Positions 3,341 to 38,853 of a DNA stretch of 39,485 nt are shown piece after piece. The notes below the pieces were generated by a model that did not search any database, was not told the DNA's origin, and saw nothing but the letters and a program-made list of their open reading frames with translations. Position numbers and translations under genes: made by a program. The DNA comes from a virus (lineage: Duplodnaviria; Heunggongvirae; Uroviricota; Caudoviricetes): IMG/VR virus record IMGVR_UViG_2534682294_000013; one strand, given 5' to 3'. Every line of letters begins with the position of its first letter. The stretch's first letter is position 1.

Positions 3341-4138
3341 TTACAACGATTTTCGAATCGTTCTTTCCCTGATTTTTGTGGCTTTTGCTTCTGCTTGCGA
3401 CAGCAGTCCTTGTTCCTGCTTGAGAATGTCTTTAAGCGGGGCGGCAAAATACACTTTCATAAACCGCCAGATATCCCGCTGAGTCAGGCCGATATTCATC
3501 GAAGAAAAATAAAGCCCAATAAGATCTTTATCCCGCCAACGACGTGGAACGCGCGTGCGAAGCTGCGCCCGGTGCAGGTCAATTACCGAAATTTTTAACT
3601 CCTCTTCCTTACCGGAAAAAGGCAAGTGCAGCAGGAAATGACAGATATAACAGTCACGGTGGTTAATGCCCGCAGCATGCATATCGTGCACCATCGTCGC
3701 GACACGCTTAATAAGCATACGCTTTACGCGAACATCTGGAGGGTTAGTCGCCCAGTCAGCACAGTAATCTTCAAGACTTATGGTTGGTGTCAGATCTTCG
3801 GTAATAATAAATGAAGTTCTGGTCAGCGGATTCATGCCTTTTTCGCCAAATGCCACCCCATACATAGTATCAACGCCGACATCCCGCAGTCGATGAATCG
3901 CATTCCATTCGCGGTCTGCGCCTAATACTGGCATCCGCAATGAGAGTAAATTTTTGATTATCTCTTTCAGGGTCGTGCCGCGATGCCATTTGAGAAAATA
4001 GCTTTTGCCCGCCATTTCAAATCGCAGAGTGCGGCGAGTTTCCAGTTCACGAAAAACCTCACCCTGCAAGGTTTTAACTTCCTCAAAAGGATCTTTACCG
4101 CGCCATAACGTGGCAAACGGCTCTTTAAGTTCAACCAT
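3341..4138 (-). CDS. waaP: LPS core heptose I kinase
   Basis: Sequence [21 protein letters not shown]... with the catalytic loop [14 protein letters not shown] chose the internal ATG at 4138, which gives 265 aa. It overlaps the waaG stop by 8 nt. The track ORF starts 3 codons earlier at 4147. Confidence 0.93.
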
Positions 4139-35092: not shown

Positions 35093-35187
35093 GGAAGATC
35101 GTCGTCTCCGGTGAGGCGGCTGGACTTCAAATCCAGTTGGGGCCGCCAGCGGTCCCGGGCAGGTTCGACTCCTGTGATCTTCCGCCA
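35093..35187 (+). tRNA. selC: tRNA-Sec (selenocysteine, anticodon UCA)
   Basis: 95 nt, GGAAGATCGTCGTCTCCGGTGAGGCGGCTGGACTTCAAATCCAGTTGGGGCCGCCAGCGGTCCCGGGCAGGTTCGACTCCTGTGATCTTCCGCCA. It has the long variable arm, the extended acceptor stem, the TCA anticodon and an encoded CCA. Confidence 0.98.
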
Positions 35188-35349: not shown

Positions 35350-36537
35350 ATGGCTCTAACCGATATACAGATCAAACGTGCAAAACCACAAGACAAACCA
35401 TACACATTGAACGATGGACAAGGTCTGTCATTGCTTATCAATCCCGATGGCTCGAAAGGCTGGCGTTTCCGTTTCCGGTTTGCAGGGAAAGCGCGGTTAA
35501 TGTCATTTGGCAGCTACGATTTAGTAAGCCTCGCAGAAGCACGTGAGAAGCGTGATATCGCCCGTAAGCAGGTTGCTAATGGCATTGACCCGGTAGAGGA
35601 ACGCAAAGCTTTAAGACTCGCTCAAAAGCTATCAACAGAAAATTCTTTCGAAGCAATATGTCGAGAATGGTATACCAACAAAGCTGATCGCTGGACTGTA
35701 GCCTATCGAGAAGAAATCATTAGGACATTCGAGCAGGATGTCTTCCCGTTCATTGGTAAACGTCCTATCAGTGAAATCAAACCATTAGAACTGCTTGAAG
35801 TATTGCGACGAATAGAGAAACGAGGAGCACTAGAGAAGACCAGAAAAGTGCGCCAAAGATGCGGTGAGGTCTTTCGTTATGCAATCATAACTGGCCGAGC
35901 TGAATACAACCCAGCACCTGATTTAGCTATCGCTCTGGCCGTTCCTAAGCCAAAACACCACCCATTTTTATCTGTCGAAGAGTTGCCTTATTTTATTCGG
36001 GATTTGGAGGCATACTCCGGCAGCATAATCACCAAAAATGCAACTAAGATAGTTATGCTTACTGGTGTAAGAACGCAGGAGATGCGCTTTGCTACGTGGG
36101 AAGAGGTTGATTTGGATAAGGAGGTTTGGGAGATACCAGCGGAACGTATGAAAATGCGTAGGCCTCACATTGTTCCTTTATCTACTCAGGTAGTTGACCT
36201 TTTTAAACAGCTCAAACCAATTACCGGTCATTACCCTTACATCTTTATTGGCAGGAACAACCGTAGCAAACCGATCTCGAAAGAAAGTGTTTCACAAGTG
36301 ATTGAGTTACTTGGTTACAAAGGCCGTGCTACAGGTCATGGATTTAGACATACAATGTCAACAATATTACATGAACAAGGGTTTGACAGTGCCTGGATTG
36401 AGATGCAATTAGCACATGTTGATAAAAATTCTATTCGTGGAACATACAATCACGCACAATATTTAGAAAATAGACGCGCAATGCTTCAGTGGTATAGTAA
36501 CTTCATATTTAATAAAATTAGTGAAGACACACTTTGA
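35350..36537 (+). CDS. int: P4-family tyrosine integrase
   Basis: 395 aa with the N-terminal arm-binding domain MALTDIQIKRAKPQDKPYTLNDGQGLSLLINPDGSKGWRFRF. The catalytic residues are in TGVRTQEMR, HGFRHT and IRGTYNH. It is adjacent to a tRNA gene. Confidence 0.93.
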   Translation: MALTDIQIKRAKPQDKPYTLNDGQGLSLLINPDGSKGWRFRFRFAGKARLMSFGSYDLVSLAEAREKRDIARKQVANGIDPVEERKALRLAQKLSTENSFEAICREWYTNKADRWTVAYREEIIRTFEQDVFPFIGKRPISEIKPLELLEVLRRIEKRGALEKTRKVRQRCGEVFRYAIITGRAEYNPAPDLAIALAVPKPKHHPFLSVEELPYFIRDLEAYSGSIITKNATKIVMLTGVRTQEMRFATWEEVDLDKEVWEIPAERMKMRRPHIVPLSTQVVDLFKQLKPITGHYPYIFIGRNNRSKPISKESVSQVIELLGYKGRATGHGFRHTMSTILHEQGFDSAWIEMQLAHVDKNSIRGTYNHAQYLENRRAMLQWYSNFIFNKISEDTL

Positions 36538-36581: not shown

Positions 36582-36755
36582 TTATTTATTGTTCTTCAAT
36601 CTTTTATCTTCTTGTAAAACAAGATTATTTAACACTTTAATTGACTTGGAGGATAAATCATCTCCTCCTAACATATTTTTTTTCCATTCCGGCCATTCAT
36701 TAATTATTTTTTTAGTTGCAACCACATGTTTAATAAAACCATTTTCGATAGACAT
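36582..36755 (-). CDS. Small hypothetical protein (57 aa), translationally coupled to the deaminase gene
   Basis: Not in the ORF track because it is under 60 aa. The ATG at 36755 is 1 nt after the deaminase TAA, with AGGAG 6 nt upstream. Translation: MSIENGFIKHVVATKKIINEWPEWKKNMLGGDDLSSKSIKVLNNLVLQEDKRLKNNK. The stop is at 36584-36582, followed by a terminator hairpin. Confidence 0.55.
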   Translation of the reverse strand: MSIENGFIKHVVATKKIINEWPEWKKNMLGGDDLSSKSIKVLNNLVLQEDKRLKNNK

Positions 36756-36756
36756 G

Positions 36757-38277
36757 TTAAACTCCTATGATCTTTGCGAATAAGTTAACAGAAATCTGCT
36801 CTCTTTCCAAGTAAGAAATAGGCAACAGTGATATTCTTAATGACGAATTAGACTCAGTCCATTTAACAACATTTCCCGACTTATCTTTTCTCTTAATTTT
36901 ATTACCACTTCCATTAACAATGGAAAATAGATTAAAATAGACTCGTGGACCTATTCCAATAAAAGGTTCGAAAAGCACCTTTCCTTGGTTTTTTTCATCA
37001 TTAGTTATTGATTCTGAATGAAATTCATAAGCCTTACTTTTTGGATATGGCTCTATGTAAACCACCCTCTTTATTCCCGAAGCTATAATATGCTTAGCGC
37101 AGTTGTGGCATGGGAAAGTAGTGCAATATATATAAGCATCTTGAGTACTAATATTTGTTCTAGCGCATGCTAAAATAGCTTCCATTTCAGCATGCACCAC
37201 ACGACCATATTCCGTAATATCTTGAATCAGGCTGTTATTGAGGATTCTCTCAAAATTATCACGAGATTTTCTAGGTATTTGATTGAGAATATCATGTATA
37301 ATTTCTCTTTTTTGTTTAGCATTCGAATCAAAACCTCTTACATAGTCCCTTCCTTCCGGATAGTCTTCATAAATTTCGTTCTCTGCATTAAAATATGGCC
37401 AGTATAAACCACCACCAGACTTAGGAACATCATTAGCACCAGTTGACATAATAGCGTAATTTTTTGCTAATACAGCTCCAACTTGTCTTGATAAATCAGC
37501 AGATCTCAAAGCTGAAGAAAAGGCCATATACATTGCATATTCATCAAATGTTGGCGTAATAAAAGGATTACCGAATAGCAAATCAAAAACTCTTTTTATA
37601 TCATTATTAAGTTTATCATCTCGGCCATCTTGGTTTAAAAAGAAATCAGCCAAATGAAATGTATCTCTGGTATGCTGCCCATGCCCAGACTCTTCATCTT
37701 CATCTCTAGCAATCAATAACGCTGCTTTATCTTCTGGAATTCCTTTATTACGAATTAAATTATCTAACCTGCGACTCTCATCAGAAAAAATACCAAACAA
37801 TAAAAATCCCGAGCCATATACTTCTCTTAATTTATACACCTCTTCTGGATGCTTTATTGAATTTATAACATATGCAATTCCTTTTTTATTTATTTGTAAA
37901 CGTGCATGCTTTGCCCTAATCTCATTAATTTTAGCTATTGCTCCAAGAGCCAATATATAATTACATTCACTATCCTCCCTCAGTTTATTTCCCTTAGTCA
38001 TTAAGCCATCAATTCTTTGGTAATTATCTGTATAATCTCCATTACCTAAGAGCTCAGCTATCACATCAGATGAAATCCGAACTTCAGAACATTCAAATTT
38101 ATATAAGGATAATCTATCTCTTATTTTTTTTGTAATTGCTTCTAGGTCTGTGCCAACGGAAGAAACTAACCCTATTACCATTTCTGCTAAAGGTCCTGTG
38201 GATTGCTTATCCTCCCCTGAGTTTTTTAAAAGCTGAGGTGCTTCTTTATTCAATTCTGTTATCTTTGTAATTTTCAT
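36757..38277 (-). CDS. Nucleotide-kinase-like / deoxycytidylate (dCMP/dCTP)-type deaminase fusion protein; candidate anti-phage nucleotide-depletion effector
   Basis: 506-aa ORF. The C-terminal half carries the zinc deaminase signature RSADLSRQVGAVL ... VVHAEMEAI (H362, E364; nt 37194-37177) ... FPCHNCAKHIIASGIKRVVY (C390, C393). The N-terminal half has a degenerate P-loop GLVSSVGTD (no Lys) and a small-NMP-kinase-like stretch INSIKHPEEVYKLREVYGSGFLLFGIFSDESRRLDNLIRNKG. The gene is AT-rich and sits in the satellite cargo slot. Confidence 0.8.
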   Translation of the reverse strand: MKITKITELNKEAPQLLKNSGEDKQSTGPLAEMVIGLVSSVGTDLEAITKKIRDRLSLYKFECSEVRISSDVIAELLGNGDYTDNYQRIDGLMTKGNKLREDSECNYILALGAIAKINEIRAKHARLQINKKGIAYVINSIKHPEEVYKLREVYGSGFLLFGIFSDESRRLDNLIRNKGIPEDKAALLIARDEDEESGHGQHTRDTFHLADFFLNQDGRDDKLNNDIKRVFDLLFGNPFITPTFDEYAMYMAFSSALRSADLSRQVGAVLAKNYAIMSTGANDVPKSGGGLYWPYFNAENEIYEDYPEGRDYVRGFDSNAKQKREIIHDILNQIPRKSRDNFERILNNSLIQDITEYGRVVHAEMEAILACARTNISTQDAYIYCTTFPCHNCAKHIIASGIKRVVYIEPYPKSKAYEFHSESITNDEKNQGKVLFEPFIGIGPRVYFNLFSIVNGSGNKIKRKDKSGNVVKWTESNSSLRISLLPISYLEREQISVNLFAKIIGV

Positions 38278-38475
38278 ATGAAGTCATTCATCCAGTGAAG
38301 ATACAAAACATTTTTATAAATAATTCTTAGCATGTTTTCTATGTTTTCATTAAATTTTTTGAATTACCTCATGTTTTACATTTAAGCAACACAAGGTAAA
38401 CAACTGTTATATAAGAAAATTGAAAGCATAATGAATGATGTAGTTGGCTGTCACGTCTTCCCACTTCGTAGGGCG

Positions 38476-38490
38476 GATTCAGGCTGAATC
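38476..38490. repeat. 15-bp perfect palindrome in the cos-proximal non-coding region
   Basis: gattcag-g-ctgaatc has 7-bp arms around a single central base. That is too tight for a hairpin and is more consistent with a dimeric protein-binding site. Confidence 0.4.
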
Positions 38491-38734
38491 ATAGATAGTT
38501 TTAGACCTCTTATAGGACCGAATGTATAAGATGAAGGTATTAGAGGAGCTGAGCGCCTTCAAAACCGCCACTCAGTATCTAAACCGGGCAATACTTTCTC
38601 GCCCCTAACTTAGCCACTCATGGGCTCATCACGCCATCAAACATTACTGCACGATCACTAATACTCGTTCGAAACGGCACAGTACTACGGTACACCAAGT
38701 CCCGCAAAAATAAATACATTACCGCTGGCGCGCA

Positions 38735-38753
38735 GTGCTTTCCCCGCCTCGCC
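38735..38753 (-). other. P2/P4-type cos cohesive-end sequence (19 nt)
   Basis: The minus strand reads GGCGAGGCGGGGAAAGCAC. This is identical to the 19-nt cohesive end I recall for P2 and P4. Its orientation (psu -> cos -> cargo -> int) matches the P4 map. Confidence 0.8.
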
Positions 38754-38853
38754 CGCCCGCTTTGCGGGGCGGTTTTAATGCAGTTTCACTGACACGCTCA
38801 GGCCGCGCCGGGAATGGCGCGGTCTGCAGAAAATGAGGCAGGAAAACGCATGC

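Follow-up and report, generated by a model that had tools for sequence, protein, structure and literature searches.

A composite interval 5' of the anti-phage dCTP deaminase of a P4-like satellite: probable relic of helper-phage DNA joined to a predicted promoter region

The stretch of viral DNA considered here (the window; 39,485 nucleotides (nt), Caudoviricetes, IMG/VR virus record IMGVR_UViG_2534682294_000013) carries at its end a P4-like satellite with the order psu, cos, variable cargo, tyrosine integrase and transfer RNA (tRNA) gene, and this end of the window is 100% identical to Escherichia coli O157:H7 FRIK944. The cargo includes the gene for an anti-phage dCTP deaminase, which is separated from the cohesive-end site cos by an interval of 457 nt. 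We conclude, with a probability of about 0.7, that this interval is a composite of dead helper-phage DNA and a promoter, and that the presence of a regulatory RNA within it is unsupported. Judged by sequence homology, the distal part, which adjoins cos, is a decaying copy of DNA from a P2-like helper phage together with a dead second cos, and the proximal part, which adjoins the deaminase gene, appears to hold the control region of the deaminase operon. The parts of the interval and its upper boundary are as follows.

38278-38734: the interval under study, 457 nt.
38735-38753, minus strand: functional cos (cos1), the 19-nt cohesive end of P2 and P4, an exact match to GGCGAGGCGGGGAAAGCAC and the upper boundary of the finding.
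38728-38734: universal 7-nt cos flank, GCGCGCA on the plus strand, by alignment the last base-for-base homology with P4 and all P4-like satellites.
38583-38727, minus strand: apparent relic of the helper cos-to-portal spacer, the first part of the inter-cos element (profile and phage matches).
38490-38582, plus strand: apparent remnant of a P2-like portal gene (Q), from its 3' end, now noncoding and with the stop-codon region deleted.
38432-38489, minus strand: apparent relic of a second cos region (cos2*), profile positions 280-326, including the palindrome at 38476-38490.
38458-38489: left flank of cos2*.
38439-38457: decayed 19-mer of cos2*, GACGTGACAGCCAACTACA, with 8 of 19 matches.
38432-38438: decayed 7-nt flank of cos2*, with 1 of 7 positions kept.
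38278-38431, minus strand: cargo-specific 5' region of the deaminase operon, ~153 nt.

The interval was found in 12 of 5,426 E. coli genomes, identical in all of them and always with the deaminase alongside, and it was absent from the plasmids searched. Together with a P4 homology of only 7 nt, this pattern suggested that the whole interval was specific to the cargo, a view that was overturned by a scan of viral contigs with an exact 22-mer seed and by profile searches. The seed scan returned 15 P4-like satellites, and in 13 of these the region after cos aligns with the window over ~300 nt; after this inter-cos element each of these 13 IMG/VR satellites carries a cargo of its own, and the element was found in at least 17 satellites in all. 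A longer flank (…GCGCGCCAGCGGTAA…) is common to the window and the Raoultella locus L008, and is also present in the Klebsiella satellite of PMC9122126 Table S2A. A profile (nhmmer) built from the elements of nine satellites matched the window end to end from 38734 to 38446 (E=2.8e-24), retained E=1.2e-15 without the seed region and matched none of 200 shuffles, while positions 38421-38600 by themselves gave E=1.6e-10. The same profile found no match in the proximal 38278-38430, and none in P4 or in eight other satellites, single-cos relatives included. The copy in the window is missing 13-nt and 19-nt stretches of the consensus.

Comparison with phage genomes points to a helper as the source of the element. 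The copy in one satellite (L117) matched Klebsiella P2-like phages by blastn, and the profile matched Klebsiella phage ST147-VIM1phi7.1 directly to the right of its cos (E=1.6e-50), covering the cos-to-portal spacer and then ~108 nt at the 3' end of the annotated portal gene, which lies on the opposite strand. In phage L122, the terminal ~108 nt of the annotated portal coding sequence align with profile positions ~179-281. Compared directly with ST147-VIM1phi7.1 the window gave E=4.6e-4, and the identity between satellite and helper copies is about 80%. At the protein level, tblastn weakly matched the portal C-terminus, (R/K)SYT..TE.D*, in L107, L116 and L119 (E 0.07-0.95) and found no match to it in the window; the flank is not shared by E. 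coli P2-like phages. The cos region of a P2-like helper such as ST147-VIM1phi7.1, consisting of cos, a short spacer and the 3' end of Q, is colinear with the distal interval and significantly similar to it; unlike the helper, the satellite copy breaks off ~100 nt into the portal gene and is noncoding, and a second cos and defence cargo come after it where the helper has structural genes.

A profile made from true cos regions revealed the second cos, with significant matches in nine satellites (E=2e-20 to 5e-7) at ~306-334 nt past the first cos. Its mismatches range overall from 0 to 7, with none in L117, two in L108 and L118, four in L120 and five in L110. Within the interval of the window there is no intact P2/P4 cos, GGCGAGGCGGGGAAAGCAC being kept at 8 of 19 positions at 38439-38457; a repeat search pairs 38460-38479 with 38756-38775 at 75%. 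Taking the position of the second-cos relic as a guide, the junction between relic and cargo is placed at about 38432-38446, and an earlier sequence-only reading of this DNA, which had put a junction of cargo and backbone near 38440-38470, was essentially right. The 15-bp perfect palindrome to which that reading had drawn attention (38476-38490, GATTCAG-G-CTGAATC, 7+1+7) is indeed present, but a single palindrome of this kind is within chance expectation (shuffle P=0.115) and three substitutions disrupt it in a 92%-identical orthologue (L104); it was dropped as a meaningful feature and corresponds, in decayed form, to the ATGCAACTGCAT motif from the left flank of cos.

Two of the related loci merit description in their own right. 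L117 (IMGVR_UViG_2713897180_000006) carries on the minus strand, at ~3416-3799, two perfect 19-nt cos sites in direct orientation, 334 nt apart and with helper-derived DNA between them, and among its relatives the second cos is found at every stage of decay. The orthologue L104 (metagenome contig OKVJ01011358.1) is 92% identical to the interval from 38732 to the ATG; in it the interval abuts a psu that is divergent and truncated, cos and the 3' end of psu having been deleted, and L104 is apparently a satellite remnant for which packaging is no longer possible.

The homology with P4 itself ends almost at cos. The 19-mer at 38735 is GTGCTTTCCCCGCCTCGCC, the reverse complement of GGCGAGGCGGGGAAAGCAC, and against P4 blastn matched only P4 11478-11624, beginning at 38754 and running rightwards with 98% identity to the P4 right end. 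Tested against the left end of P4 (P4 positions 20-246) the interval showed no homology beyond 7 nt common by alignment, and only TGCGCGC is shared beyond the 19-mer when the window is aligned with P4, four E. coli satellites and five from other genera. On the cos side, matches in 2,250 E. coli genomes have their leftmost limit at 38706, and homology with P2-like phages reaches 38706 at most. The distal part had been proposed to be conserved P4 packaging sequence, a label that fits only loosely: it is adjacent to cos and shared among satellites, but conservation with P4 is confined to 7 nt and the element has no match there. P4 backbone homology does not extend to the deaminase start, stopping 7 nt from the 19-mer.

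The cargo of canonical P4, and of most E. coli satellites, begins 7 nt after the 19-mer, whereas in the window ~300 nt of DNA, apparently from a helper, and a dead second cos intervene. The architecture is otherwise that of the known cos-adjacent defence hotspot (psu-cos-cargo-int; PMC9122126), in which this locus is catalogued. We found no mention of a helper-derived stretch with a second cos in two papers on the hotspot (PMC9122126, PMC13586616), and we regard the inter-cos arrangement as a modestly new variant of a known architecture. Homologies, boundaries and the constraint pattern are shown by the sequence comparisons; from these we infer an order of events in which an ancestral satellite, of a P4-like lineage of the Klebsiella/Raoultella type, would have gained a copy of helper DNA adjoining its cos. 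The copied DNA would be that to the right of the helper cos, comprising the cos-to-portal spacer and ~100 nt from the 3' end of the portal gene; the copy would have created a second cos ~300-335 nt downstream of the first, with the defence cargo after the second. In the lineage of the window, cos1 would work in packaging, and the helper stretch and cos2 would have decayed by substitutions and deletions.

The proximal ~153 nt is AT-rich like the cargo and travels with the deaminase, as seen in L008, L088, L103 and L104. It was compared with Raoultella and Scandinavium relatives, whose deaminases have 88-90% protein identity with a divergence of 41% at four-fold degenerate sites. Positions 38278-38378 are about 82% identical to those relatives, so that ~100 nt are constrained (18% divergence), and within them a 38-nt core, TAGAAAAYATGCTAARAATTATTTATAAAAATGTTTTG, has 2 differences to each of the two, or 5% divergence against the neutral 41%. 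The features of the region, all on the minus strand, are these.

38303-38345: most conserved block, candidate sigma-70 promoter.
38341-38336: -35-like hexamer TAGAAA, followed by a 17-nt spacer.
38318-38313: -10-like hexamer TATAAA.
38359-38342: A/T tract between dyad and core.
38355-38375: upstream block, with the degenerate dyad TGAGGTAATTCA at 38371-38360.
38425-38454: best-scoring promoter-like match of the interval, GTGACA-18-TATGCT (consensus scan; position weight matrix (PWM) score 8.6), overlapping the apparently dead cos2 19-mer.

Both hexamers and their 17-nt spacing are invariant in the window, L104, L008, L106 and L088, with indels just outside, and the TAGAAA-17-TATAAA pair has a PWM score of 4.7; transcription is predicted to start near 38306 and to yield a ~29-nt leader. 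Further upstream, the dyad is perfect (TGATACGTATCA) in the Scandinavium relative, and (A)TGATACRTAaCAAAA is conserved ~85-95 nt 5' of the ATG in alignments of ten relatives; the upstream dyad with the A/T tract is possibly an UP element or an operator. The -35/-10-like pair, the 17-nt spacing and the adjacent A-tract are what one expects of a common sigma-70 promoter preceded by an A/T-rich element. Unlike a bare sigma-70 promoter, the window has 38 contiguous conserved nt and two imperfect hexamers, and conservation of this extent exceeds what a bare promoter would need, which hints at an overlapping operator. The conserved ~100 nt would act at the level of DNA as promoter and operator, giving a short and poorly translated leader, and the promoter would drive an operon of the deaminase and a small protein with a WPxWK motif. 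The promoter that the sequence-only reading had placed in the proximal part is thereby borne out as a deaminase-linked, conserved, promoter-like block.

Several points weigh against this assignment. The top PWM match (8.6) lies at 38454-38425, outside the conserved core; it is kept in L104, is not alignable in L008 or L088, and would give a leader of ~140 nt if used. The -10-like TATAAA does not end in the usual T, and the two hexamers match at 4/6 and 5/6 positions. The substitutions in L104 are spread evenly across relic and promoter, and constraint becomes visible only against the more distant relatives. The promoter assignment draws on consensus and conservation and is to be read as a prediction. 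An inverted repeat round the -10-like hexamer (38298-38311/38332-38345) was considered and set aside, as it is not kept in L104 or Kosakonia.

Two further observations concern the extent of the proximal region in relatives. In the Scandinavium metagenome-assembled genome (MAG; L089), a gene fragment with an rve_3 domain (transposase-family integrase core) lies ~215 nt 5' of the ATG, and similarity of this MAG to the window and L008 is limited to roughly the last 130-180 nt upstream, which fits a small control region. In single-cos satellites with relatives of this deaminase, the distance from cos to ATG is 135, 191 and 196 nt (Yersinia, Kosakonia and Serratia), in agreement with the ~153 nt of the window.

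The alternative that carries most weight for the proximal region is a type III antitoxin RNA of the DifV/AvcI kind, most likely a ~140-nt leader transcribed from ~38418 by the GTGACA-18-TATGCT promoter, or else a shorter RNA within 38278-38431, which would bind the deaminase and inhibit it until depleted by a phage-induced stop of transcription. The precedent is strong. In Vibrio cholerae the inhibitor lies in a 504-nt region 5' of dcdV, is co-transcribed with the gene and acts post-translationally, and its level greatly exceeds that of the deaminase mRNA. For three other homologues the upstream DNA likewise inhibits the cognate enzyme, and these regions have no sequence in common (bioRxiv 10.1101/2021.03.31.437871). 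AvcI is labile and disappears when transcription is shut off, which frees the enzyme (PMC10511110). An upstream RNA inhibitor has been found in all four AvcD homologues tested experimentally, which raises the prior for one here and counts against our interpretation. The deaminase of the window belongs to the same NCBIfam equivalog, a promoter-like site that would yield a 140-nt leader is present, ~100 nt 5' of the ATG are constrained, and the full locus can be cloned in E. coli MG1655, so something must hold the enzyme in check. As in the AvcID (DcdV-DifV) system, a noncoding stretch of comparable length (457 versus 504 nt) lies 5' of a homologous deaminase gene and is co-oriented with it; unlike in that system, about two-thirds of the stretch in the window consists of unrelated, apparently relic DNA.

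The known AvcI RNAs share no sequence. As a yardstick we used RNA structure and covariation, a choice of our own, the family having no published consensus. Rfam has no match in the interval, and folding z-scores in ~60 windows over both strands are unremarkable (-2.3 to +1.7, with -1.75 for the leader). Six orthologous leaders gave no consensus structure by RNAalifold (-2.2 kcal/mol, with a positive covariation term of +1.1), so that a comparison of homologous upstream regions, which the sequence-only reading had suggested as a check on its cis-encoded inhibitory RNA, yields no covariation; neither Rfam, folding nor covariation lends that RNA support. The lone local inverted repeat, AAAACAT/ATGTTTT, is weakened in L104 without compensation, and the DNA from the candidate promoters to the ATG contains neither a terminator nor an attenuator. 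Length also argues against an RNA of the known kind. The known AvcI minimum is 152-174 nt in a transcript of ~300 nt, and ~153 nt of cargo-specific DNA is too little for a promoter plus such an RNA; in relatives this DNA amounts to 135 nt (measured from cos) or 121 and 141 nt (from the neighbouring gene), and over 77 loci of the family the median ORF-free distance upstream (ORF, open reading frame) is only 125 nt. The conserved small protein encoded downstream of the deaminase offers an alternative partner. On balance we regard an antitoxin RNA at this place as unlikely.

Other members of the family were considered in this connection. Photorhabdus relatives, with ~500 nt of conserved-looking upstream DNA and a few compensatory pairs, were tried as a model for AvcI and dropped: divergence upstream (0.16-0.34) equals that at four-fold sites (0.22-0.36), so there is no constraint, and nhmmer matched none of these upstream regions outside Photorhabdus. 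A second E. coli deaminase type, of 589 amino acids (aa; 18 genomes), has an unannotated upstream gap of 521 nt (L087, ETEC1747, 2194-2714) and no WPxWK ORF; with a length close to the 504 nt of V. cholerae, this gap is a better place than the window for an AvcI-type RNA. The enterotoxigenic strain ETEC H10407, whose system has been studied by experiment, is neither among the 12 genomes with the deaminase of the window nor among the 18 with the 589-aa type. We found no solved structure of an AvcD-RNA complex.

For the distal part, the question is whether the captured DNA is debris. Between 38597 and 38674 the relic is 62% identical to Raoultella L008, where four-fold sites of the adjacent gene are 59% identical (41% divergence), and the rest of the relic differs from L008 by many large indels; together with the consensus stretches missing from the window, the absence of the element from single-cos relatives and that of the flank from E. 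coli P2-like phages, this makes the relic and the decayed cos2 probably inert debris. Other observations run counter to complete inertness. Among IMG/VR satellites the first ~80 nt of the element hardly vary; a GC-rich hairpin at ~38674-38700 (alignment columns 46-77) is kept in all 17 sequences aligned; and two of its pairs have changed on both sides in the lineage of the window and L104 with pairing kept. A counterpart of the hairpin in helper L122 was recognised by eye only, and a consensus structure computed for the whole inter-cos alignment contains one short hairpin only. The cos-proximal part of the element may on these grounds retain some function.

Carried further, these observations would make the helper-derived flank, with or without its second cos, a functional element, either extending the packaging signal in imitation of the full cos region of Klebsiella-type P2-like helpers or providing homology for recombination of helpers and satellites beside their defence hotspots, of which the copy in the window would be a decaying example; duplicated cos and captured flank would then form a device that recurs in one P4-like lineage and is kept by selection. 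The occurrence of the element with different cargo in at least 17 satellites, the ~80% identity between satellites and helpers, the nearly invariant first ~80 nt, a second cos that is perfect in L117 and near-perfect in L108 and L118, and a hairpin whose pairing survives two-sided changes all agree with such a device. Yet 7-29 nt on this side of cos suffice for good packaging of P4 and most E. coli satellites, E. coli P2-like phages lack the flank, and past the first 80 nt the divergence of the element exceeds that of psu at four-fold sites in the same viral-contig satellites (17%). The second cos and the portal fragment occur in all stages of decay, deletions included, and near-identity over the first 80 nt is expected from recovery by an exact 22-mer seed and from close relatedness. 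We consider a functional flank improbable, and the same low estimate applies to a selected device; were it real, the device would give the satellite the full packaging signal of its helper, or P2/P4 homology, beside the defence hotspots of both elements, by which cargo is shuttled between helper and satellite.

It is very improbable that a small protein is encoded in the interval, or that the interval is the pseudogene of an earlier defence gene: ORFs of 28-33 aa exist in it, and recombination remnants are reportedly common in these hotspots (PMC13586616), but the ORFs are without family matches (none in NCBIfam) and are missing from L008, third-position changes in the 33-aa ORF at 38618-38719 number 3 of 7 against L104 (a manual count) and show no codon-position bias, and the sole coding ancestry found is the portal 3' end, unreadable in the window. 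The small ORFs were rejected as genes on these grounds. The general description given by the sequence-only reading proved accurate: no ORF of at least 60 aa lies in 38278-38734 on either strand, the longest being 33 aa, and the proximal part is AT-rich and the distal part backbone-like, with a GC content in 100-nt windows of 0.22-0.26 over 38250-38449 and 0.39-0.51 over 38400-38749. It was also correct in finding the Shine-Dalgarno sequence of the deaminase weak, as there is only TGGATGA, 14-20 nt 5' of the ATG, whereas the Raoultella relative has a properly spaced GGGGGAGG.

The remaining features of the satellite are listed here.

35093-35183: tRNA-Sec, the integration site of the satellite (83.8 bits; likewise tRNA-Sec in the RefSeq annotation).
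35350-36537, plus strand: integrase.
36582-38277, minus strand: two-gene cargo downstream of the interval.
36582-36755, minus strand: 57-aa WPxWK ORF, protein 2 of pFR98 in PMC9122126 Table S2B.
36757-38277, minus strand: anti-phage dCTP deaminase, 506 aa, protein 1 of pFR98 in PMC9122126 Table S2B.
From 38918, minus strand: psu, running beyond the end of the window (RefSeq annotation).

The protein encoded at 36757-38277 is a bona fide anti-phage dCTP deaminase (NCBIfam NF041025, 470.7 bits against a cut-off of 400; PADLOC dCTPase, 1.2e-168). Its system, WP_000704989, was listed as cargo of the P4 hotspot by Rousset et al. 2022 (PMC9122126), who had it synthesised as pFR98 ("Cytidine deaminase, P4, 2 genes, E. 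coli O157:H7 FRIK944"). The insert of pFR98 begins just outside cos, and its sequence as printed in the table reaches ~38383; the construct holds cos, the interval and both genes on a low-copy plasmid, with the native promoter and in MG1655, and gave no defence against eight phages (PMC9122126). The cloning of this FRIK944 segment in MG1655 indicates that the module is tolerated as a unit. FRIK944 has three elements that bear a cos.

The second cargo gene begins 1 nt past the deaminase stop. Its 57-aa product, listed as protein 2 of pFR98 without comment (PMC9122126), has no model match in Pfam, NCBIfam or PADLOC, and its family is recognised by an invariant W-P-x-W, mostly with K or R next (consensus F..HL......V..WPxWK), followed by a variable and probably disordered tail. 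A WPxWK ORF lies directly 3' of the deaminase in 53 of 79 homologous loci, ranging from Enterobacterales to Planctomycetota and Paenibacillaceae, and for most of the family the 'single-gene' dCTP deaminase system thus appears to be a conserved operon of two genes.

Near cos, two further structures were noted. On the plus strand a terminator-like hairpin at 38753-38772 consists of CCGCCCGCTTTGCGGGGCGG followed by TTTTAATG, and on the minus strand, just past the psu operon, a weak hairpin at 38721-38736 is followed by a T-rich run; terminator-like hairpins at cos may shield the cargo from read-through of the late operon.

The meaning of the interval is mostly ordinary, a promoter region joined to a fossil. 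For cloning of the native control region, or in a search for an AvcI-type antitoxin, only the last ~150 nt upstream of the deaminase would be of interest, and the search for an inhibitor is narrowed to this ~150-nt leader and the conserved 57-aa partner protein. The remaining ~300 nt of what would be annotated as the 'intergenic region' of this locus is probably a fossil and should not be mined for regulatory RNAs. As a fossil it would record that DNA of a P2-like helper entered P4-like satellites at the very site of cos, with tandem cos sites as the result, and a transfer from helper to satellite beside the hotspot would be a useful footnote to the exchange of defence systems.

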